Part shown: piece after piece, positions 15,483 to 37,664 of the stretch | How the letters are laid out: each line of letters opens with the position of its first letter | How positions within the stretch are numbered: the first letter of the stretch is position 1 | IMG/VR virus record: IMGVR_UViG_3300022538_000960 | Location: 34,002 to 98,001 of that record | Length of the DNA stretch: 64,000 bases | Strand: one strand, 5' to 3' | From: a virus | The notes under the pieces: generated by a model | What the model was told of the DNA's origin: nothing | The model's database searches: none | Seen by the model: the letters and a program-made list of their open reading frames with translations, nothing else | Program-made: the position numbers and the translations under genes

Positions 15483-15498
15483 GGAAGGAAGGTAAATT

Positions 15499-15738: not shown

Positions 15739-16142
15739 TGTCTGTGGATCAGAAAGAAGAACAGACAGAATGGACATACCCGTTTACTGCGGAAATGATG
15801 AATGGCTGGAAAGAAAAATTCAAGGATGTTTTTTGTCTTAAGATTAATGATAAGTTTTATGCTTATAAACCCTTGAGCGTGGGGGAACTTAGGGAACTTC
15901 AAGTTGCCGAGATGAAAACAATCAGAGAGCTGGAGTCAAATAATGAATTAACTGACGATGAAAAAATGACTTTTGTCCAAAGCAAATCGATGGAGCGGAC
16001 GGTCGCCACATGTGTCCTCTGGCCGGAGGATTTTAGTTCGCAATTAGATAGTGTCCCATGTGGAGTCGTTGATAGGTTGAACGCAGAAATATTCAAAGTT
16101 TCCGGTTATGAGGAAGCCACAACTGAGCCGATGAAATTATAA
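15735..16142 (+). CDS. Putative tail assembly chaperone
   Basis: RBS AAGGAGGT; WKEKF..V.......Y.YKPL...E; CVLWP; G....L...I...SG pattern. Confidence 0.55.
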   Translation: MMSVDQKEEQTEWTYPFTAEMMNGWKEKFKDVFCLKINDKFYAYKPLSVGELRELQVAEMKTIRELESNNELTDDEKMTFVQSKSMERTVATCVLWPEDFSSQLDSVPCGVVDRLNAEIFKVSGYEEATTEPMKL

Positions 16143-16184: not shown

Positions 16185-16217
16185 GGCGGGAGGATTTGAT
16201 GATTCCCCCGCCTTTTT
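16185..16217 (+). terminator. Hairpin plus U-tract upstream of the first giant gene
   Basis: GGCGGG-aggat..attcc-CCCGCC-TTTTT. Confidence 0.65.
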
Positions 16218-16228
16218 CATTAATACTT

Positions 16229-19200
16229 ATGTACCAAGACTATTTTTACGAGCAAAGAGAGAATCTGGATTATAGGGATCGGCAACTACCCAGTCCTTTG
16301 AAAACTATAGGGGCTGGGGCGTTTTCACTCCTGGCTTTTGTGGTCATCAGGGGGGCGGCGGTTCGTGGGTCTTCTGCTGCGAGCAAAGCCCTGTCTCGCA
16401 ACTTGGCAAGAGTAGTAAGATCAGTTCAAGCCCCGGCATGGGCTAAATCCTATAGGAATTTAAGAGCTGCGGCGATAAGAAGTGGCCGGGCTGAAGCTAG
16501 GGAATTTGGAGTATTGGCTCCCAAGGATATTGGAATAGCCGCCACGGTAAAAGAAATACCCTTAATTCATAGAGCTCGAGCCAAATTTACAACTACCTTT
16601 GCAAAGCAAATTGAATCCAGGCGGCAGTATTATTATAGGGACTTAGGCTTACGCCAGAAAGAACTGTACGCCGCATTAAAGCATGGCCATCACCCAAAAT
16701 CTCTTGATCAAAGACTCAAGGCTTTAAAAACATTCATGAAACCCGATGGGGCATTTTCTGCCCGTTTCATGGCCGCTGCTGGGAAATGGGGCGAACGATA
16801 TGCCAAGATGATCCCTGGGTTTTATGTTGCGGATCAAGCATTGGGTCTATTTTCAAAGGCGCGACCAGAACACCTGAAACCAGCATGGTATAATATACCC
16901 GGACATGTCGCTGGGATGGTCAGATTTGGAATCGAATTTGCTCCAATTGATTTAGCATTTAGTGGTGCTTTGCGGGTGCTTAGATATGGCAGAGCCGTAG
17001 CTGCAAGAAGTGCCCAATTGGGCGTCCGCGAATTCCCACACGTAAGAGAGGGATTTACAAAAGCCGTTGAAACCTTGCACATAAAAGGTGCTCAATGGCA
17101 TGCGTCTATTTCTAAGCATTGGGCTACTCGCAGACGTGGAGCATGGCCTTCGATTCAGGAACTCAAACGTGGCATCAGAGATCGCAAGGCTCCGCATTCA
17201 ATGGATATTATCAGATTGTATTCTGATATCGTAAAAGATGCCAAAGTCCAGAGGAAACCCTATTTCAAAATGGAGCAGCAACTTACTCAGATCCTAGGTG
17301 TTCTTGGTATGAGGAAGGATCCCACACTGCTCCGCGAAATGTCTAGAAATACTGAAATCAAAAAGGCATTTGATGAAGTTCTTGCAAAATTTGAGAGGCG
17401 ACCAAAACAGACATTTATAGAATATGCACTTAAAACTCCGGAGAGGCCGGCGGATTGGGCTCCACGTAGGTTGTCAACTACATCATATATTAAGAGATAT
17501 GCGAAAGAAGCCCAATGGGATCCGGAAACTACAAATAATGCTTTAAAGTTGCTTGGAGGAAAAGAATTATATTATGGCCAAAATATCCTTAGAAAAGGCA
17601 ATTTTTCAATGTTCAATGCTAGCTTTGCGGCTGGCAAGGTAATAGATGTAATGGGGAAATGGAAGGTGCCGTTTATTAGCTGGCATCCTTTCAGACGAAT
17701 GATGGTTGCTGGAATTCCCAGAATAGGAATTCCGGGCAAAGGTCCCGCATTCAGAATTCTTGATGAAAAACAATCTGCATTGATGGCTGAGGCTGCAGCC
17801 AATGCCGATCTAAATGTTACTAGGTCTCCGCAACTCAAAGTCGGGGAATATTTCATGAGGATTGGAGATCATCTTTTTAGGCTTAGCCCTGAGAAACTTA
17901 TCGAAAGAGTTTCCGGACATTGGAGAGTCAGCGTTGATACAATTACTGCTGGAGAAAGAAGACATTTCCAAGGTCTGGTTGAAAGTCAGACTGATTATGA
18001 ACATACTGGTTGGTTGGGACATCTGCGGCAAAAGTTTGAATTAGGCCGATCTCCTCACTTCATAGGAAAGCGACTTAAAGAATATATTATTCAAGATTTT
18101 AATCCCGAGAGCCCCCACGTATTGATGCATGAAAAAGGGAAATATGTTAATATGCTCAGACATCTCCAAGGCGATAAGATCCTCAGTCCTCGAGAACAGA
18201 AGGAATTTATAAATTATTCAAGAGCGGTGGGTCGCCACTTATATGGATCAGAACAAACGGCTTTAGAAGTCTTTCATAATAATCAAGGTCTCAGAGGGAA
18301 AGTCCTTGATATCTTAGGTGGCGTTGATGCAAAGAAGGCTAAGAAGATTTTAAATGATGCAAATATAGATAGGGTAATTGACGATCTATCCTTATTTGAC
18401 TATGCACTACCAGAAACATATTCCCAAAGAACCATTCAACAAGTTCGCCGAGCACTCCACGATGTCCAAAATCTTACAGGCCCTGATCGAGAATTCCTAT
18501 TAAGATCAAGATCAAGTATTCTTGAACAGTCTAGCAATTTGACCGTGGAAGATTATCTGATGGGGCAGTATTTTAAGAAGACATTGGAAAATTACAGCCA
18601 GGCTGGAAAGATCACGGAAGGCGTCTACGATAAAATTTTCAAATCCATTGATGATACGCTCCTGGCCAAAAGGGAAAAATCTAAGGCAAAATCATTATTT
18701 ACTAGTATGAAAATTAATAGGCCTATGTCCGATTATCTGAATGTATATAGTGATCAGGAAGTAATCAATAGTTTGGATACTGTCGGGCATCTTAGGGATA
18801 TTATTACCCCAAATGAAAGTTTGCTTAGGGAAGTATTTAAATTGGATTATAAGTCTCTTCGGGAATCTATGAAAATAAATAGATTCATGAAGGACACTCT
18901 TGTTCCCCTTGAGATCCAAGGATTTTTGGGACCCATAGATGAGATATGGAGGGTTCAAGGTCATGGAGCTCCAGCTGCTCCAAAGGATCTTTTTGGCGCC
19001 GCCCCAGGATTTGGGGACATGCTTAAAAGCGATTTTAAAAAATTCTTTAGGATTTCTGATTCCGCAACCCAAATAAATTACGAGCCATATGTTACCAAGC
19101 AAAGCATGCTCCTTCATAGATGGGCAATTAGGCCATTCAATATGACATTAGGATGGATTGGTCTGGATTTACATTATAGATCAAACGCTGAATTTATGAA

Positions 19201-22200
19201 AAAATTCTTATGGAAACGCGCTTTGGCTATTCCCGCTGCCATTTATGGTTACCGCGCCCTCGATACCTTCCTGACGGTAAATCCACTCTTAGACCACACC
19301 ATGTTTGATGATGGTTTGACATCCGCTGGGGCGCAGGCAATCGGGAAAGCCAATCTTGCTAGGGCCGAAGTGTTTGACACATTGGGAATAACAGACTTTG
19401 CTCAACATATGGAAGGTCTTATGCCTGGCTCTATGGAATCCCCAGCCGCAAAACTATTTAGGGGTGCCGTCCTTCCACTCTTAGGAAGAAGATTTGGTGG
19501 GGGACCGGGACTTATGATTGGACTAGGAGCCGCGGCTGCAACAGGATTTGGACTCCCAGATCTTACGAGATCTGCGGATGAACTTCGAGATGTTTATTCT
19601 GGACGAAAGCTTTTACCTGTCAGGTCTGGCAGATTTTGGGAGACCTCAAAATTGTCGTATTTTGGAGGAAGAATATCATCATTTCAACCAAGTTGGTATA
19701 CGAAAATTGTAAGTCAATATAAATACACGGATGCTGCCTTGGGGACTAAATTAGAATCGCTATTATATACTGGTCCTTTGGGTGCAATAACCGATTCGTA
19801 CCACTACGAGCGTGTTCGGTACCACGATAGACCTTATCCCACGACGGCTCCATTGTTTAGCGACATTCCAATAATCGGATCCGTAGCAGATATGACGATT
19901 GGAAGACTCTTAAAACCCCAGACTATGATGCATGAAGATGAATTAGCTGCTGCCCAGATGGGATTTGATGTGGAGACGAAGAACCGGATTCTGCCGGGAT
20001 ATAATAAGAATACAATGCCACCCCTACATGAAGCCCGCCCAGGCTATTTTGCTCCTAGGCATACTGTCCCATCTGTGAGTATGAAGGGAATGTTGGGAGA
20101 GTCATTCTATAGACTTACTGAAGCGGCTGGACTTCGGGGATTTATGACACAAGCAATATTAGGTCGAGAGGGCATCGGTCAATATGCGCCAATATATGAT
20201 GATGCATCTGCAATCACCAGTTTCGGCCGACAATTTTGGGACCTTCAGGCTGGGGGTGGGCTGGCATCGGAAGCCTGGAGAAGATTGTATCCAAGAGAAA
20301 GATTTAAAAATTTGGTAAATCCAATTCGTAATTTGGCTCCGACGTGGTTGCCGGAAGATTTCAAATTCGGAGATCCGTATACAAAAATCAAAGGGGGTTT
20401 GATATTATTACCATCCCGAGCTCATGAGAAACTTTACAAAGTGCGTCATAATTTCCCAGTTGACCTAGAATATTTCGGATACGAACCAGGAGAAGCTGCT
20501 GGGAGGATGCTGAAGCTGATTAGACCAGAGAGAGAAGAGGAATATCATTACTCGTTCATTAAAGAGTTGGTTCAAAAACAATTACTGATGAATAGACAAT
20601 TGCTGAGCAAGGATGTTTTTCAATTTGATCCTTGGAATAAATTGGAGGGAACTGTTGATGCTATAATAATGAATCAATCAGGGAACCCAGAATTGATGCA
20701 GATAAAGGCGACCACTTCTGAAAAGCTTGGATTTATGCAGCAACCGAAGCCCGCGCACGTTGCTCAACTTAATTTTGCCATGAGACAGATGAAACGGAGA
20801 CATGGACAAATACTCTATGTCGCCTCGGATAATCCAGAACTAACTAAATCCTTCTATGTGGAATACAGCTCCGAACGATTTCATAATGACATGGCAAGAA
20901 TGAATGAAGCCCGAGAATTAGCATCGGATATGCTACTCAAGGGAATTGGTCAGGTTGGAGAATCCTATTCTTATCCAGATAGATTGCAGGTGTTGGCAAA
21001 TTCGGCTCCGTGGAGTCCAGAATATAAGAAGGTTTTGAAGCAATGTAAGATGTTAGATAAATTTGGATTGTTGGATGAAGAAGATCGGGTTAAAGTAAAT
21101 GAATCGCGCAGGCAGCACGACGCAATTATGCGGAAGTTTGATTTTTATCCTCATCGATTTAGTCATGGAAAATGGCTTACGCCTGATCCAATTTATAATT
21201 TGATGTCTCAGAATGTGAATATCAAGGCAGCGGCAGAATATAATGTTGTCGAAAGATTAATGGGAGCGGCATATGAACGACTATTAGAATTTGACATCCC
21301 AGTGGTGCACTCAAAACTGCTACCATATTACACAAGTGAACAAATGTATGAGAGACAGATCGGAGGCAGTTTCAGTGGAAACTGGTCTAGACCCATCCAT
21401 GATTATATAAGACCATGGTGGCATAGCTTCTTATTATCTTCTGGTCCTGCAGAAGCTGCGGCAAAACTTGGATTCGCAGGTGCGCTGTTTGCTGGTCCCC
21501 CCGGCGCCGCCATTGGTGTGAGTGCTGGACTATTATATGGCGGAGGGAGAGCTGTTGCCGGTCGAGGAACTTGGGTCCCAGGAGAAGTTAAGAGAATTCG
21601 GGAAATTGATGAATATTTTGATGCCTTGGAATATATAAAGAATAATCAATTGTATGAACAAACCGGGGATCCGGAATATCTTAAGCGCTCAAGGGAGACA
21701 ATCTATGGGATTACTCCTATGAGCACCCCAGCTGAATTTTATAGAGCAGTGCCGTACATGGAAAGACCATTTTTCTGGTCGTTCGCCTCTATTCAGGACA
21801 AGGCTCAGCAAAATAGAATTAAACAAAGAGTTTCACCGACTATGAGGACGCTTTTGGAACATTATTGGTCTGGAGATAAGAAATTTACGAATCCCATGAT
21901 AGAGGACTATAATCCAAAATTCCGAATGCCAGCAGAAGATTGGATGGGGTGGAGAGAAGATATTCCTCTGGAAGATATTCAGCTCAAGACCGTTAAGAAT
22001 GAAGGACTTGATAATTTTGACTTTGGATTGGGATGGAAACCACAGGAATTAAGAATGCATAATTCCCCATATGCAATCAAGCCGATAGATATTTCTAGTC
22101 CTTCTGGAGTTCCATATGGTCAGGAAGATTTGGATGCTGGCGACATAAAGAATTTTATTCGAAATGTTTTACAAAGGTATGGCGTAATGAATTCGAATGT

Positions 22201-22255
22201 AACCGTTACAAAATCTCAGGGCAAAGGTGCCCACATATCTTTAAATATTACATAA
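16229..22255 (+). CDS. Giant basic virion protein at the tape-measure position, with membrane segments and a PD-(D/E)xK (Cas4/RecB-like) nuclease-like domain; start may be 16199
   Basis: ~2010 aa; Gly/Ala-rich hydrophobic segments; LEGTVDAII...MQIKAT...HVAQLNFAM...GQILYV at about nt 20640-20830. Confidence 0.65.
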   Translation: MYQDYFYEQRENLDYRDRQLPSPLKTIGAGAFSLLAFVVIRGAAVRGSSAASKALSRNLARVVRSVQAPAWAKSYRNLRAAAIRSGRAEAREFGVLAPKDIGIAATVKEIPLIHRARAKFTTTFAKQIESRRQYYYRDLGLRQKELYAALKHGHHPKSLDQRLKALKTFMKPDGAFSARFMAAAGKWGERYAKMIPGFYVADQALGLFSKARPEHLKPAWYNIPGHVAGMVRFGIEFAPIDLAFSGALRVLRYGRAVAARSAQLGVREFPHVREGFTKAVETLHIKGAQWHASISKHWATRRRGAWPSIQELKRGIRDRKAPHSMDIIRLYSDIVKDAKVQRKPYFKMEQQLTQILGVLGMRKDPTLLREMSRNTEIKKAFDEVLAKFERRPKQTFIEYALKTPERPADWAPRRLSTTSYIKRYAKEAQWDPETTNNALKLLGGKELYYGQNILRKGNFSMFNASFAAGKVIDVMGKWKVPFISWHPFRRMMVAGIPRIGIPGKGPAFRILDEKQSALMAEAAANADLNVTRSPQLKVGEYFMRIGDHLFRLSPEKLIERVSGHWRVSVDTITAGERRHFQGLVESQTDYEHTGWLGHLRQKFELGRSPHFIGKRLKEYIIQDFNPESPHVLMHEKGKYVNMLRHLQGDKILSPREQKEFINYSRAVGRHLYGSEQTALEVFHNNQGLRGKVLDILGGVDAKKAKKILNDANIDRVIDDLSLFDYALPETYSQRTIQQVRRALHDVQNLTGPDREFLLRSRSSILEQSSNLTVEDYLMGQYFKKTLENYSQAGKITEGVYDKIFKSIDDTLLAKREKSKAKSLFTSMKINRPMSDYLNVYSDQEVINSLDTVGHLRDIITPNESLLREVFKLDYKSLRESMKINRFMKDTLVPLEIQGFLGPIDEIWRVQGHGAPAAPKDLFGAAPGFGDMLKSDFKKFFRISDSATQINYEPYVTKQSMLLHRWAIRPFNMTLGWIGLDLHYRSNAEFMKKFLWKRALAIPAAIYGYRALDTFLTVNPLLDHTMFDDGLTSAGAQAIGKANLARAEVFDTLGITDFAQHMEGLMPGSMESPAAKLFRGAVLPLLGRRFGGGPGLMIGLGAAAATGFGLPDLTRSADELRDVYSGRKLLPVRSGRFWETSKLSYFGGRISSFQPSWYTKIVSQYKYTDAALGTKLESLLYTGPLGAITDSYHYERVRYHDRPYPTTAPLFSDIPIIGSVADMTIGRLLKPQTMMHEDELAAAQMGFDVETKNRILPGYNKNTMPPLHEARPGYFAPRHTVPSVSMKGMLGESFYRLTEAAGLRGFMTQAILGREGIGQYAPIYDDASAITSFGRQFWDLQAGGGLASEAWRRLYPRERFKNLVNPIRNLAPTWLPEDFKFGDPYTKIKGGLILLPSRAHEKLYKVRHNFPVDLEYFGYEPGEAAGRMLKLIRPEREEEYHYSFIKELVQKQLLMNRQLLSKDVFQFDPWNKLEGTVDAIIMNQSGNPELMQIKATTSEKLGFMQQPKPAHVAQLNFAMRQMKRRHGQILYVASDNPELTKSFYVEYSSERFHNDMARMNEARELASDMLLKGIGQVGESYSYPDRLQVLANSAPWSPEYKKVLKQCKMLDKFGLLDEEDRVKVNESRRQHDAIMRKFDFYPHRFSHGKWLTPDPIYNLMSQNVNIKAAAEYNVVERLMGAAYERLLEFDIPVVHSKLLPYYTSEQMYERQIGGSFSGNWSRPIHDYIRPWWHSFLLSSGPAEAAAKLGFAGALFAGPPGAAIGVSAGLLYGGGRAVAGRGTWVPGEVKRIREIDEYFDALEYIKNNQLYEQTGDPEYLKRSRETIYGITPMSTPAEFYRAVPYMERPFFWSFASIQDKAQQNRIKQRVSPTMRTLLEHYWSGDKKFTNPMIEDYNPKFRMPAEDWMGWREDIPLEDIQLKTVKNEGLDNFDFGLGWKPQELRMHNSPYAIKPIDISSPSGVPYGQEDLDAGDIKNFIRNVLQRYGVMNSNVTVTKSQGKGAHISLNIT

Positions 22256-22264
22256 GGAAAAACT

Positions 22265-24523
22265 ATGAAAATTTCTGCGATAAACCTGACCGTTAATTCC
22301 ATCAAGGTTTTGGAGAGAAGGTATCTTAAGAAGGACAAAAACGGAAAGGTCGACGAAACCCCAGAAGAGCTCTTCTGGAGGGTGGCTGAGGTTATATCTT
22401 CTGCGGATAAGGATTATGGAGCTACCGAATCTGAGATAAAGAAGGCCAAAGAAGAATTCTATGAGATGATGGCAAAGTTGGAATTTATGCCCAACTCCCC
22501 CACCCTGATGAATGCGGGTAGACCTCTGGGCCAGCTCTCCGCCTGCTTTGTCATACCGATCGAAGATACCATGGAATCCATCTTCACTGCGGTGAAGGAT
22601 ACTGCCCTGATTCACAAAAGCGGAGGCGGAACCGGATTTTCATTCTCAAGATTAAGACCCAAAAATTCGCCTGTGGCATCCACCAGCGGGGTGGCTTCGG
22701 GTCCCATATCTTTCATGAAAGTTATCAATGCCGCAACTGAAGCGGTCAAGCAGGGAGGGACGCGACGTGGAGCTAACATGGCAATATTGAGGGTGGATCA
22801 TCCGGACATTCTGGAGTTTATCTGTTCCAAGGACGATCTGAAAGAACTTACCAATTTCAATATCTCTGTGGCTGTCACCGATGCCTTCACGAAGGCGATG
22901 GAAAAGGATAAGTACTACGATTTGATCGATCCCCGCACCGGAAAAGAATACAATTTGAACGATAAACCAGTTCGGTATAGGGCCAAAGAGATCTTCGACT
23001 TGATCGTGGAACATGCCTGGAGAACCGGTGAACCAGGGATGATGTTTCTGGATAAGATGAATCAGGGCAATCCCATTACCAAAGTTGGATTATATGAATC
23101 CACCAACCCCTGCGGAGAGCAGCCCCTTTTGCCTTACGAAAGCTGTAACTTAGGATCCATCAATCTCTCCAAGATGCTTAAAGTCAGTGGTCAGTCGTCA
23201 GTGGTCAGTGATCAGACCCCACCCACCACTGTTATGGAGGTGGATTGGGACAAATTGGAAACCACGGTCAAAAAGGCGGTTCATTTTCTGGATAATGTGA
23301 TAGACGCCAACAATCATCCGCTTTCAGAAATTAAAAAGAACACCGAAGCCAATCGGAAAATCGGCTTGGGGGTGATGGGTTGGGCAGATATGTTGGTTCA
23401 GTTAAGGATTCCATATAATTCCACTGAGGCGGTGAAGTTAGCTGATAAGGTGATGGGATTTATCAAAGAAAAATCTCACCAGACTTCGTCTGAATTAGGA
23501 AAAGAAAGGGGCAACTTCCCCAATTGGGAGAAAAGCGTCTATTACGAGAAAAAAATCCCCATGCGCAATTCCACCGTTACCACCATTGCGCCGGCAGGAA
23601 CCATCAGCATCATCGCTGGTTGTTCCTCCGGGATTGAGCCGCTTTTTGCCATCTCCTACATCCGCACGGTGATGGACAACACCAAACTGGTGGAGGTAAA
23701 TCCCTTCTTTGAAGAAGAGGCGAAAAAGAGAGGTTTTGACACCAAGGATTTGATGAAGAAAATTGCCCAGAAGGGATCGATTCAGGATCCCGATTTCATC
23801 GGGATTCCCGAGGACGTCAAAAAGGTATTTGTGGTTTCTCATGACATAGCACCGGAATGGCACGTGCGAATGCAGGCCGCTTTCCAGAAGTATACGGACA
23901 ATGCAGTTTCCAAGACTATAAACCTCCCCAACCAAGCCACGGTGGGGGACGTGGAGACTGCTTATAGATTAGCATACCAATTGGGTTGTAAGGGGGTGAC
24001 CATCTATCGGGATGGATCCAGAGAGGCACAAGTGTTATCCACCAAAAAGGAAAAAGAAAAAGAGCAGGAGAAAATCGCTCCCATGGAGAGACCGGCTTGC
24101 CTTTCCGGCATAACTGACAAGATTAAAACCGGATACGGGAATCTTTATGTGACCATCAACAGCTTAAATGGAAAGCCTTTTGAGGTTTTTGCCCAGATAG
24201 GAAAATCCGGATATTCCACCATGGCCGACACCGAAGCCATCTGCAGGTTGATCTCCCTGGCGCTTCGGAGCGGGATAAGTGTGGAAAAGACCATCGAGCA
24301 ACTGATTGGAATTGGCGGCGCATCTCCCATCTATCAGGAGGGCGGACTGGTCATGTCCATCCCGGATGCCATTGCCAAAGTTTTGAATAAGCATTTTGGT
24401 AATGGCCAAAATGCCAATCACGATATAGATCTTACTATGGAATTCTGTCCCGACTGTGGAGCTAAATTGAATCGTGATTCTGGGTGTATTGTCTGCACTC
24501 AATGTGGATTTTCAAAATGTTAA
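22265..24523 (+). CDS. nrdJ: Class II (adenosylcobalamin-dependent) ribonucleotide reductase with C-terminal TSCPD domain and Zn ribbon
   Basis: NSPTLMN, QLSACFV, GGTRRGANM, TNPCGEQPL, ESCNLGSINL, TIAPAGTIS, CKGVTIYRDGSR, CPDCG...CTQCGFSKC. Confidence 0.93.
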   Translation: MKISAINLTVNSIKVLERRYLKKDKNGKVDETPEELFWRVAEVISSADKDYGATESEIKKAKEEFYEMMAKLEFMPNSPTLMNAGRPLGQLSACFVIPIEDTMESIFTAVKDTALIHKSGGGTGFSFSRLRPKNSPVASTSGVASGPISFMKVINAATEAVKQGGTRRGANMAILRVDHPDILEFICSKDDLKELTNFNISVAVTDAFTKAMEKDKYYDLIDPRTGKEYNLNDKPVRYRAKEIFDLIVEHAWRTGEPGMMFLDKMNQGNPITKVGLYESTNPCGEQPLLPYESCNLGSINLSKMLKVSGQSSVVSDQTPPTTVMEVDWDKLETTVKKAVHFLDNVIDANNHPLSEIKKNTEANRKIGLGVMGWADMLVQLRIPYNSTEAVKLADKVMGFIKEKSHQTSSELGKERGNFPNWEKSVYYEKKIPMRNSTVTTIAPAGTISIIAGCSSGIEPLFAISYIRTVMDNTKLVEVNPFFEEEAKKRGFDTKDLMKKIAQKGSIQDPDFIGIPEDVKKVFVVSHDIAPEWHVRMQAAFQKYTDNAVSKTINLPNQATVGDVETAYRLAYQLGCKGVTIYRDGSREAQVLSTKKEKEKEQEKIAPMERPACLSGITDKIKTGYGNLYVTINSLNGKPFEVFAQIGKSGYSTMADTEAICRLISLALRSGISVEKTIEQLIGIGGASPIYQEGGLVMSIPDAIAKVLNKHFGNGQNANHDIDLTMEFCPDCGAKLNRDSGCIVCTQCGFSKC
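23183..23217. repeat. Five tandem heptamers (GTCAGTG-like) inside nrdJ
   Basis: gtcagtg gtcagtc gtcagtg gtcagtg atcagac; encodes an in-frame loop VSGQSSVVSDQT. Confidence 0.8.
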
Positions 24524-24535
24524 TGGGTGATTCTA

Positions 24536-30500: not shown

Positions 30501-30580
30501 TTGTTAACTTTGGCTCTGACAATAATTTAACAATGAGACGGAATAGTGGGCAGTGGCCGAATAAATTGAGAAATTATTGA
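24536..30580 (+). CDS. Single-chain two-barrel (DPBB) RNA polymerase fused to a DEDDh 3'-5' exonuclease; candidate virion RNA polymerase
   Basis: ExoI FIDFETFG (26054), ExoII AAWSAGFD, ExoIII HEASID (26672); beta-type MKVFAREHKGML..VDAVL (27500); beta'-type LIRIPP...MAHFDFDGD (DFDGD at 29378-29392). Confidence 0.75.
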   Translation: MPIIYDPEEDQFVDRHGYLFPTVLLGGGFLAWKKYYGSPQLGRKFSPRAFVGFVKDLDPQDYLRKYLTRPDKPELPLQRRLVETAVEYEKSKSVIEFLTDADMKTIHSIGSALPTPMKAEEIEFKRQVIRQFNPVTYDLVRSNVEKTQEVFNELLENVEESKHLQSVLKQQLERYRFKKSRLLIYSKFSEIISPEMLKSEAGHPVLMRQLWDMQKKQVQEARRLAQILQNETPETIVNLKIPKVLERIDPTTIIDERRARLQPAGKTISDTGIKLSYTNYKSFLQELRRARVDSKAVAAIESIDPLLRQHLNELAHTKPRITYALRDNAFNLQAVIKLSIQTKEEGKREIINLKIPLARGGRLRINGTGYIPQRYRGIKPLIPEIERIESDIYESVIRNLNKRFKSEVWHKVMDGDARGGERSINALIKEPIDERLIIESGRPVHDFIEQNIIQDARLGYLSPTRGFRTEDERRVVLDRFKKMQKLKLLLLEGGGKLKLPNRYAFIDFETFGTKTNYLPHQVTVGIIENGAVVDWYTGKIDPRSINTNYAFPEVDLKLSFKGKTREQVMKEFDEIGQPISKIRRDLEEFLRKNAKGGKLPVAAWSAGFDVDRVMGQQFLGAKAYLGETWDPMDLQKAIDPDVQASVSLRSVGRSRKIFVPTSSKKDLILNKKVIELFKKNRNLMSILKDKDPGFHGKLMKAVSEKQIRDLVMHEASIDVLVANKVFQDIAKDINLHSSVVMRDLNAMLLSYHRALTRSINPIGINHWTTRALGSNFPSLSPAQILQGKFTKFDIRDLAPLTRLGLDPTRPFYQQWVSAHLITKDVPDLITKTYKKIADKHGELFKSIDTLTIFNPLTAESAGLIDFQAADEMAIKMGTKEIRIPHTGKLKLIPELREYFEQIKSTRSPREREIVLSKLRQKMAKSYQKGSHFQEWLPGYTLLGEAEGFTFNTSTPLMSTIENIEYNNENKEIAIRLQTASRPEKYGHPMKVFAREHKGMLTPVEGLRSITWVDAVLRKDLVKRGRMSFMLGQIQRLTRNFQAIHSKLTPAQTFQFFETVKTFVSKINSMGGIKLDWQVNRGKLQFIDEITGKEWQKLDLGKIEKNWLQFSEGGWVKFMKEYSQKIRHMMISFGVKYSRHDPRLPYWTQGQIESMLSTEWGRRFPKKLVFADLSRAEQNAFREKIEVEMHDQLSKSELSKFFTKAELERWKSGTLMKGHLSLIQLFGGSWGVLEVTPASRAYEAGELYAKGTDVAIPRLSELVISGPVGQRLARSFTPQQRDMMNYMSNIQPLLRYGVLPESHYPIVKASEINLDPMTTHLGFKQEVGIIEDKSFRIKCVETGEIFNSLEEVPGRYLKQYTLRPMGMNAYMHPKTLESLYGQQPTIAEFNIGKKTVYVPRPALSFIRGAPAKVTKSGDPYTIVGKEIQTFKNLFVMAADYKLIEDKEAKKLAEREFFARVEDYRNMLLTDKSAYIKLTKPTIPGVQGKISMAFPPGMAKALGLPQDMFAHITTGFGVQGVSMESIGEEYFNKAMDAHQIKIGPDTGKFRGGTGSIYPNKLAFRESLSKGEELLAGTLIRIPPESKFAAFDTLIDVRRDQAAGMRLQLREAMMAHFDFDGDIAPLGFANLTPEDQEQVLKDLVNKQHIDREAHKTLAERIKKLHANVLEYETSKDAATKKQLVKELEQIQELEKTMNVNVYGQGIWVREAKPGVTPKEIKLGVGDEMRFRKMNLHQFMKGLPSIDLPGKLISLPGEELELHLSNMLTKTATAYSYRETMRMRASGRLFGGKLTQQYLDLYDQLVGKVTAFKKIPLADAEALTRAFIEPTAAESKTIMTKYLDKDAEQLWSQFKDWHTELGRLGVRRQINDLISSGMKRSPITGGQLALWGPSVELPTGKSRAILDFWGKEKFLDSFKRHGKKGGIAIALAALIAPIFLPHDNLYDKDGYPIIPTSFNISRPIFPSPIHVVPNDPTSHPVRTFRPQIMDPLLVNFGSDNNLTMRRNSGQWPNKLRNY

Positions 30581-30583
30581 AAT

Positions 30584-30597
30584 TGAGCTATAACATT
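30584..30597 (+). promoter_or_regulatory. Conserved motif TGAGCTATAACATT, copy 2
   Basis: Exact repeat of the 13256 motif; 3 nt before ATG 30601. Confidence 0.6.
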
Positions 30598-30600
30598 GAT

Positions 30601-30798
30601 ATGAATTACCAAATCCGAATCTCGGGGAGATTTACCAAACCTATTGATATTCAGAGTCTCGAGACTGCGCTCGAATCCCTGTTTAAAAATTTGACTGGGG
30701 AGAATACAACTATTTTCAATAATAGCTCTCCATCTCCCATGAAAAACTGGAAAAATCCATCTCCAATTGGATTACAACTGAATCCTTTAAGGACATAA
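30601..30798 (+). CDS. Small hypothetical protein (65 aa)
   Basis: ATG at 30601 fills the gap between two giant genes; no Shine-Dalgarno, possibly leaderless. Confidence 0.45.
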   Translation: MNYQIRISGRFTKPIDIQSLETALESLFKNLTGENTTIFNNSSPSPMKNWKNPSPIGLQLNPLRT

Positions 30799-30800
30799 TT

Positions 30801-33800
30801 ATGAAAACGTATATTCCTCTTGAGTGGCGACCTGGGATCCATGGTGGATTCAGCAATCCGGATGACAGCAGAAATATAGTGCAACCTCTTCTTGACCTAC
30901 TAAATTATTTGAACCGACGGTGTCAAGATCGAGGGATGAATCACATTATTATTACTTCTGGAAGACGGGGTGTTGAATACAACGCCGGTATTGGAGGAAG
31001 TTCAACGAGCTATCACCTGACTGGGCACGCCGTGGATATTGCCGTAGTTGGGCGATATAATAGATGGGAGCAGGCAATGATTGATAATTGGCTGCATACT
31101 GTATATGGTGGACAGCTCGCCCAAGTTTTATTTCATAGTACGGGGAAAGGAAAGACCAGCACGTATCATTTGCATATAGGAATCCGGAAGGGATCAGAGG
31201 GGATGGGTCCACTTTTGGAGACGGAAAGTAAAAGTGAGGGGATTATTGAAGGAAAAAAGCCAGGTGCCAATTCCTATAGTATTATAAGTGATAATATTAC
31301 TGGATATACTGAAACAATTGCGACTCAGATTCCTCTCGATATTTACAAAACAAGCTACGAATTAATCGAAGACGTTGCTGAGGAAGAAAAAACTGACGCC
31401 CTAGTTGCATTGGCGCAGAAGCCAGGATCATTTAAATTTGGAACGCGGTGGTTAACAGTGCCTCCTACATCAATTGCTTTTACCGAACAGAATAATATTG
31501 TCGGGATTCCAACCCTTCGTACCAAAGGCAATGTATATTGGAGGACTGGCATTAATTCAATAAATATAGATCTTGAATTTTTGTTCCCGGGGTTAATTCA
31601 AATTAATGACGAATTGCGGCATATAATTGCTCAAATTAAAAGGTGCCCATTCTTACCTCTTGAGAACTACTATCTACATTCACTGATATTCCCGGAATTG
31701 AAATCTGCTAAGCCGCAACCCGATATTCCGTATGAATTTACCACGGAAGAGAAGTCGAAACATGAGAAACAGACTGGCACCCAGGACAGACTTCAGCCCC
31801 AGCAATGGCGGTTGAAAAATAAGAAAATTATGGATATAGTTAAATCCGGGGATGAAAAAAGCTTGGAGGAGTTTATAGAAAATGGTAAAAGACATGGGTA
31901 TTTTACTCAAGATATTGAATCCCAGGAGGATAGAGAGAGGAGGACTGAACAGCTCGAAGGACTGCACGAGTGGATGAAGAAATATAGACATATTGACGTA
32001 GATGAGACCAGCGGACTAAGCTACAGAGATCAGCAGATGGTGTCAGCAATACGGTCAATATCGGTCTCTTCGGTTCCAGGATTTCCCAGAACGCTCCAAA
32101 TGAATTGCTCTTGCGATATTTTCAATTATTTCCCTTATACGTCAGCATTTAGCTTTATAGAGGATGAAACGAAAAATGACAATCCGGTTTTCAACATTTC
32201 CAAAAGTGTCCTATTTGGAAAATATTACAAAGGAATGCTCACCAGGAATAATGCCCAGGAATTCAAAGATGCGTTTGAATCGACAACGAAATTGGAAGCA
32301 GTTGGGTCCGATGAACGTATGGATTATTTGCATCTAAGATATATCTATTCCGAGGAATTAAGAAACCGCTCCCAATTGGCTCAAAGAGCCTTATTGGAAT
32401 ACATAGAATGCCTCAAAAATTATGGAGAAAGCTACGAAGCAGCTCCAGCCGCAGAATTATATGAAAATCTTTTTATATTTCTTACGCATCCTAGTTTCGG
32501 AGGATGGCAGAATCTAGCTGATGTCCCAGGGAACGTGGTAGATATTGTAAAAGAATTAGGAAAAGATGCCGTAATCGCAGGAAAAAGCATTATTGCTGTA
32601 ATAAAATTTTACCAAGATTCTTTTGGCGAATATTTGCTTGGAATAAATGCGAATGATGAAATATATGTTATAGGCACCAGGAGGGGAATGGAATATTTCC
32701 TCCCGCTTAAGGACGCAGTTAGAAATCCCCAGTATCGGATGAGATTGTTGTCTTATATCAAAGAATATTCGGTTAAGATCAGCTCATTAAAGTATGAGCA
32801 GCGGGATCTGAAGTTTGGAGATCAGAATTCTCAAATAGTTGGGGTTTCTGCATCAATGGAGACAAAGCTTGTACCAATGAATATATTGGCATTTACGGCA
32901 CCGACTTTTCAACATCTCGGAAATTCAGAATGGGTTACTACGCTGACAATAGAAACATCGAATCCGAATTTGATAAGAGAACTTCGCATGATGACCGAAC
33001 GCCTTAATCAAACCGCATTATCGCAGATTGCTGTGTTGCCCGAAATTCGAGATTATGCCGATCTCTCCGCACAAATTGTCGAAGGCCCATTTTTTAAACT
33101 TTTAGGGATAGAGAATGTAATCCCCGGCAACTTCAGATATTCAACAGTGGAAGGAAAACCGGGAGTGTTTCATATTCAAATCGATTTTGTACAATCTGAT
33201 TTGCAATTGAAAACATACGAGGCGCTTCAAGCTCCGGCTTATTTTTCATCTGATTTCATCAAGCAGTTTATTGAGCTGATCCCAACTTCAGTGCTTGAGA
33301 ATATTTCTTCAAAACTTGGGGCTGACTGGGATAACTATCATACAGTTCATGAATATAAGATTGGTGCCCGCCCCTTGACTCAAGCTTTGGAAAACTATCC
33401 AAAATGGTCAAAGTTTTTATTTTATCTATGTAAACCAATTCCATCTAGCCTATCCGGTAAAAGAATCCCAGTCTATACATTCTTGTTGGAAAATTTTACA
33501 TTGGATCAGTTAATTGAAAAACCTGAACCAATTAGTTCCACGAAGAAATTTTTATTATCCCCAGTTATTGGCCCATATATTACAGCCAAGATATTATCAG
33601 AAATTGATTTTAGTAGGAAAAATCTTTTTACTCAGACAATATTTGCGCCGATTAGGGATCTCTCTAAAGTATTGATTTCGCCTCTGCAGGCGAATATTAA
33701 ATTTAAAAATCTATTTAGTGAAGCGATTTTCGCGACATATAGAGGAGCCGTCGGGCGTCAGCTCAAGGCGGTGTTGAATGAAGCTCTAATTGGGGAAGAT

Positions 33801-36800
33801 ATTCCTCCCGAATTAGAAATTGATTCAACGGAAAGTGGACGAAATCTTCTTGGATTATTGCGAGAGAACCAAAAGCGGCTCCATATCAGAAATTCGACAT
33901 ACCCGGATTTGGAACTCCCGATTACTGCTGACTCCCCCGATTTTTGGTTTTTCCGAGAACCCTTATACAATGATGAGATTCGGGAATTTGCCAACGCTAT
34001 GGTGAATGGACATGAAGAGATGGTTATCAAATTAGCGGAAATAAATTCTGCCAACAAACAGGGGAAAGCAACTACTCATGTGGCTAAACTGAATAAAATG
34101 GCTAAAGAGGCTAGAATCAAAGACATCACGGTCACGCAAAAACTCCGGGATACTTATATGAGCTACCTAAGAGATGCAAGTGAGGATTTGCAATTCGGAA
34201 GAGACAAATCTAAAGATCTTAAAGAAAATGCAAATCTTATGATGGAAACAAGAAGGTCGCCGGTTCAAAAGTACTTAGGCCGCGCAGATGAAGCCACCTT
34301 AAGGAGCAGGCTGGCAAGAATTAAAGATGATATGAGATACTATGACGATTCGTTGAAAATTATAGATCTAGGGGGATATGAAAATATTGATTTTGAATCT
34401 GCGGCCGACCTGTTGGATACAACAATAGTTTTGATGAAAATGTGGGGGATTTATACTCCGAGGGATGCCCAGCTTGAACGGCAGATGCTCCAAGATGCTA
34501 TGGAGCTTGATGAAAATAAAACTTTAAGACTAGGTCGGGCATTCCCAACTTTCAAGTTATATTTTATAGAGAAAGATAAAGAGGAATGGCTGTTATTCGA
34601 CGATTTTTATGGATATGGCGCAGTAAAAGAGATTCAAATTAGAAAAACTCGAAAATCCGCAATTCATACCGCGGTGATCTCATTGTCGAATATTACGAAT
34701 GTGCTTCAAGATATCCATGCTCCAAGAAATGAAAATATTTCCAAATCAGAAACTGCAGAAGAGCAACCGGATGTTGATACTATGATGCTCCAAGAAGGTT
34801 GTGAAATTATGATTAAGATGGGTTATGAAAATGATTCCAATAAATTGAAAATTGTATTTCAAGGATCCATTGTGAGCATACAGCCCGGACCGGAATTGCG
34901 ATTCGTTGCACAAGGATGGGGTGCAGAACTTGCACAGCCGATCCAGAATTTTAGTATTGGAAAGTGGAGTACAATACGAGATTTTGGAGATGTGTCGACC
35001 GCAATTTTAAATAAAGTTTCCGGATTACGACATTTTGGAACAACGTATAATTTAGCAGAAATGTTTGATGATCTGCCAAATGTTCGGTATTTTTCTGATC
35101 ACAGGGAAACATATGTTGGTAGATTAAAGAATTGGGCGCTCCAGGGATTAGGGCTCAATCCCTTACTTGATCACAGGGATGATAATATTTGGATGCCATA
35201 TCATACTCCGCCTACCATTTGGCCATTGGCTCATTATGTCGAAGGGAAAGGGTTTGCATTCGATTGGAGAGTATATAATAAAACTGCCTGGGGGGCGCTT
35301 GATGAAGTATTAAAATATATGCCGGGGTACATCATAAAAATTTTACCTTATAATGAGGATAATTTACAATCTGCCAGATGCACATTATATATAGGTCCGA
35401 GAGATGGCTATTATATGGCTACTGATGACTCAGAGGTTGTCGAAAGATCCTCGGAATCTGAGAAATATCAACAAAACAGGCTGCTATGGTATAAGGATGT
35501 AAAGAATGTAACTGCGTCGACCGAAAATGAATTAATTGAGAAACTTAAGAACTTTGATATTGATTATGATAATAAGGATACTGACATTTTCAAAAATTTT
35601 GTTGATAAAAGTATCACATATCAAAATGGGGATTATCGTTTATTAAAAGCCGATCCTGGCGATCCTTGTTTATGTATAAAAACAAAAGATATTTCTGATT
35701 TCTTCACTGTTGAAACTTTGATTCAGCATCCTGGGTTAGCTTTCGCCGCCTTGATTCCTGGATTGCCACAACTTATTGCTGGGGCATCTATTGTCTCAGA
35801 AGATATAGCACGGCTGATTTCTGGTAAGGAGATTTGTTTAGATTGGGCGCCAGATCTTATAAAAAGAAATTATTTTGAATTGATTAATAACCCAAATACA
35901 GTTTCGACTACAAGACTATATGACGTGTACGATAAAATTAATTATGATAAATATGAACTAATCTATGGCACGGGTGGGTTCTTTGATCCATTAATTAATT
36001 CTAGGAATCGATTTGTTTATGGAAAAGATGAAAATCCAAGAAGACTAGCTGGAAAACGGGGGTGGAAACGTGCATGTAAGACCCATTTTATTGATAGTTA
36101 TCATCATATAATCGAAAATAATATGAAAGCTTCACGCGAAAATATGTATAATAAAGTTCATCTGATTTACCCAAAGGGTGAGCCTCAAATGGCCGCATTC
36201 GAAACACATCCCGAAGCTGGCGATTTATCTGAATTCGAAATGCTTGCAGATGATAATATAAAACCGGATATGATAAGAACTCATAAATTATTTTTCACAA
36301 ATATTGACGTAGACAGGACAAGAAATTTTGTAGATACCATTACAGGCATTCTTCAAGGAATCGGCCAGATGGTTGGACGTAATGATCGGGGCAATTATCC
36401 TGATATTCCACCTTATGCTGTTGTTGCAAATTCGATACTTGCTGAAGATCTCAAGGATATGTACGATGGAGAAATTATTATTTTGATGGATCCGAATATT
36501 GACGTCCATGATATCGTATATATCTATGATGATGTAAATGAAATTTATGGCCCAGTCGGGGTAAAAGAAGTTTATCATTATTTTTCCATGGCACATGGGG
36601 CTTATACAGTGATTGTACCTGACCTTATGTCATATCCCAGTAACTTAGAACAAACTGTCGAATTAGGTTACGCTTCAGCATTATATTCCGCAATGGTTAA
36701 GGTAGCTCTTGGTGGAATAGTATTTGGTGGGGGAGCCTCGCTTTTGGCGGGGAAATTGCTTGGTCCGTGGACCGGAGTGGGCATTGCTGGATTCACTGCA

Positions 36801-37082
36801 GCGTTTACCTATAAGCTGGTTTCATCCATAGGTTCTGGCGGAATAAATAAACTTATGGGGAGGGAAGGTTCAGAATTCGTGCCAGTATGGAGAAAAGGTG
36901 CGCCATTTTTGGCGGGAATGGATGGATACAGGAAAGACGATCTTATAGTTCATTATATGGATAAAATCACTAGGATCAGTGGGACATTTAAGCAGTTGAG
37001 TGCAAGTTTGGTGGGACTAAGGGATAGACCAGAAGGAACCCAACTGCCACTAGCACCGCTCGAATATATGGAAAGGAGATAA
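30801..37082 (+). CDS. Giant baseplate hub / tail-tip protein with N-terminal peptidase M15-type Zn peptidoglycan hydrolase
   Basis: ITSGRR..YN..IGG.STSYHLTGHAVDI...HLHIG (H-x6-D, HxH); hub-like IKMGY...VFQGSI; C-terminal Gly-rich hydrophobic hairpin. Confidence 0.7.
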   Translation: MKTYIPLEWRPGIHGGFSNPDDSRNIVQPLLDLLNYLNRRCQDRGMNHIIITSGRRGVEYNAGIGGSSTSYHLTGHAVDIAVVGRYNRWEQAMIDNWLHTVYGGQLAQVLFHSTGKGKTSTYHLHIGIRKGSEGMGPLLETESKSEGIIEGKKPGANSYSIISDNITGYTETIATQIPLDIYKTSYELIEDVAEEEKTDALVALAQKPGSFKFGTRWLTVPPTSIAFTEQNNIVGIPTLRTKGNVYWRTGINSINIDLEFLFPGLIQINDELRHIIAQIKRCPFLPLENYYLHSLIFPELKSAKPQPDIPYEFTTEEKSKHEKQTGTQDRLQPQQWRLKNKKIMDIVKSGDEKSLEEFIENGKRHGYFTQDIESQEDRERRTEQLEGLHEWMKKYRHIDVDETSGLSYRDQQMVSAIRSISVSSVPGFPRTLQMNCSCDIFNYFPYTSAFSFIEDETKNDNPVFNISKSVLFGKYYKGMLTRNNAQEFKDAFESTTKLEAVGSDERMDYLHLRYIYSEELRNRSQLAQRALLEYIECLKNYGESYEAAPAAELYENLFIFLTHPSFGGWQNLADVPGNVVDIVKELGKDAVIAGKSIIAVIKFYQDSFGEYLLGINANDEIYVIGTRRGMEYFLPLKDAVRNPQYRMRLLSYIKEYSVKISSLKYEQRDLKFGDQNSQIVGVSASMETKLVPMNILAFTAPTFQHLGNSEWVTTLTIETSNPNLIRELRMMTERLNQTALSQIAVLPEIRDYADLSAQIVEGPFFKLLGIENVIPGNFRYSTVEGKPGVFHIQIDFVQSDLQLKTYEALQAPAYFSSDFIKQFIELIPTSVLENISSKLGADWDNYHTVHEYKIGARPLTQALENYPKWSKFLFYLCKPIPSSLSGKRIPVYTFLLENFTLDQLIEKPEPISSTKKFLLSPVIGPYITAKILSEIDFSRKNLFTQTIFAPIRDLSKVLISPLQANIKFKNLFSEAIFATYRGAVGRQLKAVLNEALIGEDIPPELEIDSTESGRNLLGLLRENQKRLHIRNSTYPDLELPITADSPDFWFFREPLYNDEIREFANAMVNGHEEMVIKLAEINSANKQGKATTHVAKLNKMAKEARIKDITVTQKLRDTYMSYLRDASEDLQFGRDKSKDLKENANLMMETRRSPVQKYLGRADEATLRSRLARIKDDMRYYDDSLKIIDLGGYENIDFESAADLLDTTIVLMKMWGIYTPRDAQLERQMLQDAMELDENKTLRLGRAFPTFKLYFIEKDKEEWLLFDDFYGYGAVKEIQIRKTRKSAIHTAVISLSNITNVLQDIHAPRNENISKSETAEEQPDVDTMMLQEGCEIMIKMGYENDSNKLKIVFQGSIVSIQPGPELRFVAQGWGAELAQPIQNFSIGKWSTIRDFGDVSTAILNKVSGLRHFGTTYNLAEMFDDLPNVRYFSDHRETYVGRLKNWALQGLGLNPLLDHRDDNIWMPYHTPPTIWPLAHYVEGKGFAFDWRVYNKTAWGALDEVLKYMPGYIIKILPYNEDNLQSARCTLYIGPRDGYYMATDDSEVVERSSESEKYQQNRLLWYKDVKNVTASTENELIEKLKNFDIDYDNKDTDIFKNFVDKSITYQNGDYRLLKADPGDPCLCIKTKDISDFFTVETLIQHPGLAFAALIPGLPQLIAGASIVSEDIARLISGKEICLDWAPDLIKRNYFELINNPNTVSTTRLYDVYDKINYDKYELIYGTGGFFDPLINSRNRFVYGKDENPRRLAGKRGWKRACKTHFIDSYHHIIENNMKASRENMYNKVHLIYPKGEPQMAAFETHPEAGDLSEFEMLADDNIKPDMIRTHKLFFTNIDVDRTRNFVDTITGILQGIGQMVGRNDRGNYPDIPPYAVVANSILAEDLKDMYDGEIIILMDPNIDVHDIVYIYDDVNEIYGPVGVKEVYHYFSMAHGAYTVIVPDLMSYPSNLEQTVELGYASALYSAMVKVALGGIVFGGGASLLAGKLLGPWTGVGIAGFTAAFTYKLVSSIGSGGINKLMGREGSEFVPVWRKGAPFLAGMDGYRKDDLIVHYMDKITRISGTFKQLSASLVGLRDRPEGTQLPLAPLEYMERR

Positions 37083-37663: not shown

Positions 37664-37664
37664 A

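Follow-up and report, generated by a model that had tools for sequence, protein, structure and literature searches.

Three giant tail-block proteins of an uncultured jumbo myovirus, one of them a candidate exonuclease-RNA polymerase fusion

We analyzed a window of 64,000 nucleotides (nt) from a virus (IMG/VR record IMGVR_UViG_3300022538_000960, positions 34,002 to 98,001), in which three genes for proteins of about 2000 residues, hereafter giant 1 (P0001), giant 2 (P0003) and giant 3 (P0004), lie between the tail chaperone-like genes and the baseplate genes, together with the ribonucleotide reductase (RNR) gene nrdJ. The window belongs to an uncultured jumbo myovirus from the lineage of Bacillus phage 0305phi8-36 and represents its late structural module; the three giants in this position are a hallmark of 0305phi8-36-like jumbo myoviruses, not a new cassette. 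The explanation that accounts best for the locus, and in which we place moderate confidence, is that these are the lineage's three giant virion proteins and that giant 2 is a fusion of an exonuclease with an RNA polymerase (RNAP), which would be injected. An earlier sequence-only reading had interpreted the whole locus, nrdJ included, as a co-ejected enzyme system; that interpretation is partly supported.

A block of three giant genes is conserved in the 0305phi8-36 lineage

In tblastn searches of 50,697 phage records, the C-terminal half of giant 1 and giant 3 matched the same eight records from six phages: Bacillus phages 0305phi8-36, WH1, Edson and KLEB27-3, Moorella phage MTATph1 and Acinetobacter phage ME3. 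The genes of 0305phi8-36 run in the order sheath, tube, tube paralogue, gp142, chaperonins gp143 and gp144, gp145 (1930 amino acids, aa), gp146 (2537 aa, annotated as 'hypothetical tape measure'), gp147 (1903 aa, which forms the hub of the baseplate), a gpV-like gene and, after other genes, gp151, which resembles gpJ. The window is syntenic with this phage gene by gene, for sheath, tube, tube paralogue, gp142, chaperonins, gp145, gp146, gp147, gp150 and gp151. The gp145/gp146/gp147 block of 0305phi8-36 was reportedly described by Thomas et al. 2007. Both gp145 and gp146 were detected by mass spectrometry in 0305phi8-36 virions, according to the record annotation. Hardies et al. 2007 described the gp145-gp146-gp147 arrangement and its 'hyperplastic' hub in this phage, where gp146 was assigned as the tape measure by its correlation with tail length (PMC2147016).

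MTATph1 and ME3 carry the same trio in the same order, and the order giant 1-giant 2-giant 3 is also kept in four related loci, L002 and L003 (84-85% identical) and L012 and L013 (29% identical), with identities of 29-46% among the trio proteins of relatives. Both these loci and the cultured 0305phi8-36-like phages show the trio to be a conserved unit in the tape-measure position. The window thus shares with the 0305phi8-36 block the order from the sheath to the gpJ-like wedge, a giant 1 that corresponds to gp145, a giant 3 that corresponds to gp147, a two-gene chaperonin, and a hub bearing exchangeable wall-degrading domains. In contrast, giant 2 is not detectably similar to gp146 and carries a DFDGD motif that gp146 lacks, the window hub has an M15 domain where gp147 has SLT, NlpC/P60 and M23 domains, giant 1 contains a Cas4-fold insert, and nrdJ has been inserted.

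What the sequence-only reading described in the giants was confirmed. The open reading frames (ORFs) of 2019, 2017 and 2093 aa and nrdJ are indeed flanked by the sheath, tube and chaperone genes on one side and by those of the baseplate on the other. Giants 1 and 2 are basic, with isoelectric points of 9.59 and 9.54 (5.62 for giant 3), and in both an acidic start is followed by a hydrophobic segment (P0001 38-56, P0003 ~20-34). Gly/Ala-rich hydrophobic segments occur in P0001 (~1035-1060 and 1758-1780), P0003 (1926-1944) and P0004 (1634-1665 and 1958-1986). A classical tape measure is not visible: no Pfam or PHROG tape measure family matched, the giants contain no internal repeats, and the block holds no other large ORF.

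Two observations concern the middle gene in the cultured relatives. Around residue 1222, gp146 of 0305phi8-36 (L004:22624-30237) contains an ExoI-like 'YLDIETTG' stretch and it has no DxDxD motif. MTATph1 carries a transposase gene and three small ORFs (L006:19539-21026) between its 1309-aa middle protein and its hub gene, and the middle gene may have been truncated or split at the transposase site.

Giant 2 carries exonuclease motifs and a putative two-barrel polymerase signature

The giant 2 family comprises six members, down to 29% identity: P0003, P0006, P0007, P0008, P0009 and the L012 protein. A word-indexed search of 5.8 billion proteins returned close relatives only; two distant relatives, both full-length, came from exhaustively searching 1.84 billion representatives with HMMER, and one further member from a metagenome scan. 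Neither giant 2 nor the whole locus matched any of the 50,697 phage records by tblastn and megablast. Family members are of constant length (2000-2055 aa) and conserved from end to end.

All six members carry the motifs of a DEDDh exonuclease, namely ExoI ([IV]-D510-F-E512), ExoII (F-[DE]612) and ExoIII (H716-x4-D721). The family PF16473 (Rv2179c-like 3'-5' exoribonuclease) matched giant 2 with an E value of 3.5e-4 and 20.8 bits, below the cut-off of 27, and a profile of the exonuclease region found nothing in the PDB.

Further downstream, the six members share the invariant motif 'ELL..[ST][LI]-I-R1581-x-P-x-E ... G1604 ... H-x-D1618-x-D-G-D1622', whose Asp triad also includes D1620. Here R1581-x-P1583 sits 37 residues upstream of D1618. 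The same coupled pattern is present in phage two-barrel RNAPs that are verified or accepted, in phi14:2 gp66 (RIPNQG, 39 residues, DFDID), P23-45 gp96 (RNP, 38 residues, DFDGD) and P23-45 gp64 (RRP, 37 residues, DYDGD), and with a longer spacing in 0305phi8-36 gp99 (RSP ... DTDGD). The loose pattern R.P.{33,45}D.D.D matched 11 of the 483 ORFs of the fetched loci (155,759 aa). These were four known RNAPs, five locus-encoded members of the giant 2 family, the ME3 protein ME3_36 and one 351-aa ORF of P23-45; across the 98-kb contig from which the window is taken, giant 2 alone matched. A second invariant motif, 'SRA.E..E...K1252-G-[TA]...[IV]-P.L..LV' (including R1242), lies 366 aa upstream of the Asp-triad motif, about where the beta-like barrel lies relative to the Asp triad of gp66. 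This motif resembles the 'GNKGV.SKI.P' of the beta subunit. An invariant G-x-x-G-K1490 motif is present as well, and both are assigned to the barrel tentatively, by resemblance only. On these motifs, we consider it fairly probable that giant 2 contains a two-barrel RNAP.

Several results weigh against a polymerase in giant 2. Giant 2 and its family, searched against PDB sequences with phmmer and profile hmmsearch, hit no RNAP. No RNAP family was found with Pfam and PHROGs on the whole of giant 2, nor with Pfam on 140-160-aa crops at both motifs. Aligned by hhalign with gp66, gp96, gp64, gp99, gp65 and gp67, the candidate region scored below 1% probability in every case, and motif hidden Markov models (HMMs) made from the known RNAPs, run forward and reciprocally, left the giant 2 family at noise level. 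An AlphaFold model of residues 780-1920, from a shallow alignment, had a pLDDT of 39.7, and a fold search with it retrieved generic helical bundles only. The same hhalign comparison with gp146, MTATph1 MT_27 and ME3_36 also stayed below 1% throughout, the ESM Atlas gave neither a usable match nor a model for giant 2, and PF05183 (RdRP/YonO) was absent from the contig and from two close relatives.

Taken at face value, this uniformly negative or inconclusive outcome of the RNAP profile, HMM and fold tests would favor a different protein, a structural tape-measure or ejection protein with an exonuclease and no polymerase, in which H-x-D-x-DGD is a metal site (for Ca2+, for example) or an unrelated active site. 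DxDGD-type loops occur in Ca2+-binding proteins too, and the 351-aa ORF of P23-45 lies outside the RNAP and candidate families yet matched the loose pattern. We nevertheless judge this alternative unlikely. R-x-P, a spacing of ~37 residues and DxDGD are common to four known phage RNAPs and are invariant in the giant 2 family at 29% identity, and verified RNAPs fail the same Pfam scan. In this control, Pfam was run on gp66, on the first 1237 residues of gp96 and on a gp64 crop of 141 residues at DYDGD, and likewise gave no RNAP match; the Pfam and profile negatives consequently carry little weight. Chaban et al. reported that these RNAP families have no significant similarity outside the DxDxD region (PMC10770324). 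The earlier assignment of giant 2 as an exonuclease-RNAP keeps its motifs, which are present and invariant, while fold and profile tests leave the RNAP part unconfirmed. Separately, a reading of 'FDFDGD' as an archaeo-eukaryotic primase-polymerase motif was rejected, there being no invariant His within 150 residues downstream.

The candidate polymerase occupies the tape-measure slot

By synteny with orf146 of 0305phi8-36, giant 2 occupies the tape-measure slot, and both giant 1 and giant 2 are encoded between the chaperones and the hub. The fixed place of the giant 2 gene between virion-protein genes, the virion status of the slot in 0305phi8-36, hydrophobic segments near both termini, as in the neighboring giants, and the precedent of P23-45 together suggest that giant 2 is delivered in the virion. 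Giant 2 is in the annotated slot, but giant 1 comes straight after the chaperones and of the two is built more like a tape measure; both may reside in the tail lumen. PF10145 had no match in the 98-kb contig.

Other findings speak against a tail-borne polymerase in this slot. Giant 2 shows no detectable similarity to 0305phi8-36 gp146, MTATph1 CDS0027 or ME3_36, so that its virion location is predicted from its position only. The contig is 38% complete, and a tape measure or a second RNAP may thus lie elsewhere in the genome. In addition, ~1400 residues of folded exonuclease and polymerase do not agree easily with the picture of a classical tape measure that lies extended in the tail tube.

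Giant 2 might also be a real two-barrel polymerase that is not injected, either an RNAP made late and kept out of the virion or a PolD-like DNA enzyme proofread by the DEDDh domain, in which case its place in the tail block would be historical. DnaQ-type proofreading exonucleases are typical of DNA polymerases, not of RNAPs. Moreover, 0305phi8-36 itself encodes a YonO-like RNAP (orf99) outside its virion module (PMC2147016). However, the giant 2 gene is fixed between two virion-protein genes in all five loci, with gaps of 0-3 nt to giant 1 in L002, L003, L012 and L013, the protein has N- and C-terminal hydrophobic segments like those of its neighbors, the occupant of the slot in 0305phi8-36 is a virion protein, and the Pfam match is to an exoribonuclease family. 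We therefore regard a non-injected polymerase as quite improbable and retain an injected exonuclease-RNAP as our working explanation.

Giant 1 is a gp145-like virion protein with a probably inactive nuclease insert

Giant 1 matched ORF145 of 0305phi8-36 in tblastn with an E value of 2e-20, and its other matches were in MTATph1, WH1, KLEB27-3 and ME3. The family is defined by the C-terminal ~980 residues (core 1040-2019), which have at least 30 homologous clusters and strongly invariant motifs. A profile of this gp145-like core found nothing convincing in the PDB or Pfam, and an AlphaFold2 model of residues 1040-2019 from a 20-sequence alignment had a pLDDT of 68.9. Its sole clear fold match covers residues ~1413-1585, which adopt a PD-(D/E)XK nuclease fold in the model (Foldseek E 2.5e-4). 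Matches of this domain in BFVD were Cas4- and YqaJ-type phage nucleases and the C-terminal half of A7KUR9, an entry that we take to be gp145 of 0305phi8-36.

The insert is present in six of the 20 aligned family members. In the whole subclade of the window the catalytic Asp is kept (GTVDAI), but ExK has become Q-I-K and the Tyr of motif IV (Q-h-x-x-Y) has gone, whereas more distant homologues retain LEIKT...QLNFY. Because of these two losses an active nuclease is doubtful, and the Cas4-fold insert is probably inactive in this sub-lineage. The prediction of a nuclease-like giant 1 is thus borne out for the fold.

The N-terminal half of P0001 is basic and begins with a transmembrane segment. As the window row of the alignment covers residues 1040-2019 only, the N-terminal profile positions derive from full-length homologues, and these gave only non-significant helical-bundle or coiled-coil matches (E 0.25-6). 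The build of this half would suit a protein that acts like a tape measure or forms a channel.

LAGLIDADG inteins interrupt several giant 1 homologues, with one in the L002 homologue (gene at 2793-10004), about four in the L003 homologue (gene at 3-10004) and others in several more distant homologues. Their insertion points fall on invariant motifs of the core, at P0001 positions ~1150 (PVR.GR.W..G) and ~1355, directly after GDPY (1392-1395) and at ~1950. This placement suggests a critical, possibly catalytic, site in the gp145-like core.

Giant 3 is a baseplate hub with a wall peptidase domain

In tblastn, giant 3 matched hub or baseplate proteins from 0305phi8-36 (ORF147), KLEB27-3, WH1 and ME3 with E values from 1e-10 to 2e-14, and also that of MTATph1; its match to phrog_20474 had an E value of 5e-61. 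It is 34% identical to the L005/L013 homologue over its full length, including the N-terminal M15 domain. That the hub carries an M15 wall peptidase, as the sequence-only reading held, was confirmed with a PF08291 score above the cut-off (E 2.3e-9, 37.8 bits against 23.2), and zinc-ligand motifs can be read in the sequence (SYHLTGHAVD with H72 and D79, and HLH at ~123-125). Genes like gp150 and gp151 follow downstream.

The 0305phi8-36 counterpart, gp147, is a hyperplastic homologue of T4 gp27 and P2 gpD with exchangeable enzyme domains (Hardies et al. 2007, PMC2147016). The enzymes of the hub vary, being SLT, NlpC/P60 and M23 in 0305phi8-36. The L013 hub (9266-15727, beside P0008) bears at residues ~836-930 a staphylococcal-nuclease-like insert, 'VIDGDTVVL...VRLIGVDTPE', that is not in P0004, and the ME3 hub has a similar 'VDGDT' stretch.

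nrdJ is a lineage-specific insertion

NrdJ is an intact class II RNR (PF00317 5e-26, PF02867 9e-137, PF12637 (TSCPD) 5e-21), and its closest phage matches carry B12-dependent RNR annotation. Its gene is flanked by gaps of 9 nt and 12 nt, as reported before, the second being measured to the conserved ATG at 24536. In L002 and L003 giant 1 and giant 2 are 2 nt apart, and in L012 and L013 0-3 nt, with no nrdJ at the junction in any of them. Alignment of the junctions showed the nrdJ ORF with its 9- and 12-nt flanks dropped precisely into the giant 1/giant 2 boundary. No nrdJ was found anywhere in the partial contigs of close relatives, and the RNR of MTATph1, 46% identical, is encoded ~70 kb from the tail genes of that phage. 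Because nrdJ is missing in four related loci, the junction is precise, and the MTATph1 RNR lies elsewhere, we conclude that nrdJ, a metabolic gene common in phages, was inserted here in a lineage-specific event seen in this phage only, and that it does not form part of the machine. Its position implies that it is co-transcribed with the late genes.

These results bear on the proposal that NrdJ and active nucleases are ejected together with the polymerase as a cargo that remodels the nucleotides and nucleic acids of the host. Gaps of 9 and 12 nt do imply co-transcription with the giants, and nuclease folds recur in the block (PD-(D/E)XK in giant 1, DEDDh in giant 2, the SNase-like insert in the L013 hub). 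Against this, the junction is empty in the four related loci, the insertion is clean, MTATph1 keeps its RNR in another module, the NrdJ sequence shows no hydrophobic or targeting segment, and in giant 1 QIK replaces ExK and the motif-IV Tyr is lost. We thus reject nrdJ as part of the giant-protein system, in which the sequence-only reading had included it, and hold a co-ejected cargo of this kind to be very improbable.

A model for the three giants

Our model suggests that the three giants would be assembled in or at the tail lumen and the hub. Giant 1 would contribute a membrane anchor at the N-terminus, a basic first half and a conserved core in its C-terminal part; giant 2, a DEDDh 3'-5' exonuclease, a probable single-chain two-barrel RNAP and a C-terminal membrane segment; and giant 3, a gp27/gpD-type hub enlarged by an M15 peptidoglycan peptidase and Gly-rich hydrophobic segments. 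Upon contraction of the sheath, the hub peptidase would cleave the wall. Giants 1 and 2 would then be expelled, and their hydrophobic segments would insert and line the path of the DNA. We hypothesize that the polymerase domain would transcribe the first-entering genes, as proposed for the virion RNAP (vRNAP) fused to the tape measure of P23-45. In this model nrdJ is a nucleotide-metabolism gene that entered the 2-nt spot separating the first two giants; the late operon expresses it, and it stands outside the machine. Synteny, homology to virion proteins, the domain folds and motifs and the insertion of nrdJ are shown by the data, whereas the location of giant 2 in the virion, its polymerase activity, the ejection and the insertion into membranes are inferred.

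Gene content and genome context of the window

The window is the final 64 kb of the 98-kb IMG/VR contig, whose completeness of 38% according to CheckV implies a jumbo genome. Every substantial ORF of the window is on the + strand, and PHROG and BLAST annotation identified it as the late structural module (Table 1).

Table 1 Features of the late structural module (coordinates of the window)
Feature	Position	Strand	Basis or remark
Prohead protease and major capsid protein	10-4002	+	PHROG/BLAST annotation; virion protein genes follow, then tail sheath
Tail sheath	8444..11161	+	phrog_16991, E 1.1e-51
Tail tube	11184-11837	+	BLASTP to 0305phi8-36 gp140, 2e-34
Tail tube paralogue	12293-13171	+	BLASTP to 0305phi8-36 gp141, 4e-30
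gp142-like protein	13285-14604	+	BLASTP to 0305phi8-36 gp142, 4e-11
Two chaperone-like genes	14588-15232 and 15735-16142	+	Weak, consistent BLASTP to 0305phi8-36 gp144 and ME3_33 chaperonins, 2e-5 to 1e-4
Giant 1 (P0001), gp145-like virion protein	16196..22255	+	2019 aa; likely ATG 16229
PD-(D/E)XK (Cas4/lambda-exonuclease-like) insert of giant 1, residues ~1413-1585	20432..20950	+	Fold match; ExK reads QIK
nrdJ (between giants 1 and 2), class II B12-dependent RNR	22265..24523	+	752 aa
Giant 2 (P0003), tape-measure slot	24527..30580	+	2017 aa, or 2014 aa from conserved ATG 24536
DEDDh (DnaQ-like) 3'-5' exonuclease domain of giant 2, residues ~495-735	26009..26731	+	Motifs; PF16473 sub-threshold
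Candidate two-barrel RNAP region of giant 2, residues ~1230-1900	28214..30226	+	Invariant motifs only
C-terminal hydrophobic (transmembrane-like) segment of giant 2, residues 1926-1944	30302..30358	+	Hydropathy 1.66 over 19 residues
Giant 3 (P0004), gp147-type 'hyperplastic' baseplate hub	30801..37082	+	2093 aa; homology to phage hubs
N-terminal M15 (VanY / L-Ala-D-Glu type) zinc peptidase domain of giant 3	30888..31199	+	PF08291
Downstream baseplate genes	37085..40037	+	192-aa ORF first; PHROG matches
gp150-like gene	37665-38135	+	BLASTP to 0305phi8-36 gp150, 5e-11
HNH endonuclease	38132-38824	+	PHROG
gpJ/gp151-like wedge	38733-40037	+	BLASTP to 0305phi8-36 gp151, 5e-23

The two chaperone-like genes are weakly similar to each other, like the two-gene chaperonin of 0305phi8-36 (PMC2147016). 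The 502-nt space between them (15233-15734) holds small ORFs, an 82-aa Cys-rich one at 15234-15482 (CPACKGKC...CPVCDSKG) with the look of a zinc ribbon and a 79-aa one at 15499-15738.

The interior of the structural module also contains two HNH endonuclease genes, the one listed in Table 1 and another at 5794-6429. Together with the inteins of the relatives and the nrdJ insertion, they identify the late operon as a mobile-DNA hot spot. A scan for sigma-70 promoters and terminators gave a signal no higher than in shuffled sequence.

Discussion

The closest functional precedent for giant 2 is gp96 of P23-45, the tape measure of a siphovirus, which carries a vRNAP at its N-terminus (Chaban et al. 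2024, PMC10770324). In both phages DFDGD lies in a protein of the tape-measure slot, with R-x-P 37-38 residues upstream and a membrane segment in the same protein, and giant 2 would share the proposed role in transcribing the first-entering genes. In contrast to the contractile-tailed phage of the window, P23-45 is a siphovirus, and its tail does not contract. In gp96 the N-terminal RNAP precedes an ordinary tape measure of ~3800 residues that includes a metallopeptidase, whereas the candidate RNAP of giant 2 lies C-terminal to a DEDDh exonuclease, no long tape-measure remainder is present, and the peptidase is in the neighboring hub. The two proteins have no significant sequence similarity.

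The sequence-only reading had likened the locus to the cargo trio of crAss-like phages. The trio of phi14:2 likewise consists of three adjacent giant virion proteins (gp65, a zincin protease; gp66, the vRNAP; and gp67; Drobysheva et al., bioRxiv 10.1101/2020.03.07.982082). One of its giants has the two-barrel motif (R-I-P ... DFDxD), and a peptidase domain is in a neighbor. However, crAss-like phages are podoviruses that store this cargo in their capsid or muzzle, an exonuclease domain is absent from gp66, and no sequence similarity to gp65, gp66 or gp67 was found (hhalign below 1%). The crAss-like cargo families are extremely divergent. The likeness is an analogy only; it holds at that level, and no relationship in sequence was found.

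A further comparison is with the RNAPs of the PF05183 type, YonO, 0305phi8-36 gp99 and QDE-1, which are also single polypeptides with an R-x-P ... DxDGD beta'-like motif. PF05183 matches gp99 (E 1e-20) but nothing in the window contig or in two close relatives, and gp99 is encoded in the non-structural 'right arm', outside the virion-protein block (PMC2147016).

Within the lineage, ME3_36 (L007:15173-19984), the middle giant of the ME3 trio, carries 'REPAQG ... G-D-x-D-Q-D', which is invariant in eight members (ME3 and seven relatives; proteins P0044-P0052 belong here) down to 28% identity and is close to the 'RIPNQG ... DFDID' of gp66. By hhalign, the giant 2 family (A1) and the ME3_36 family (A6) aligned with a probability of 0.7%. 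The ME3_36 motif suggests that the RNAP-type theme may be wider in the 0305phi8-36-like lineage. The jumbo-phage survey of Iyer et al. 2021 lists two-barrel RNAPs in 0305phi8-36 (gp99) and c-st, and gives none for ME3-type phages or tail-block proteins. Our literature search turned up no account of an RNAP in the tape-measure slot of any contractile-tail phage.

We propose, tentatively, that in a sub-lineage of 0305phi8-36-like jumbo myoviruses the slot protein is an injected single-chain two-barrel RNAP joined to a DEDDh exo(ribo)nuclease, and that RNAPs in this slot are possibly recurrent and unrecognised in the lineage, as ME3_36 hints. We know of no described counterpart of a DnaQ-type exonuclease on a two-barrel RNAP. 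If the proposal is true, giant 2 would be the first virion RNAP to pass through the lumen of a contractile tail, as well as the first RNAP of the two-barrel type to carry a DnaQ-type domain for editing or processing, which could mean proofreading or processing of RNA, or an attack on host nucleic acid at entry. It would also raise the question of how an enzyme of ~2000 residues is stored in, and passes through, a tail tube. Fusion of a virion RNAP to the tape measure, known from one thermophilic siphovirus (P23-45), would then also occur in jumbo phages with contractile tails. The 'hypothetical tape measure' annotation of the 0305phi8-36 lineage would have to be re-read, and the ME3_36 family would offer a concrete candidate in a cultured Acinetobacter phage.

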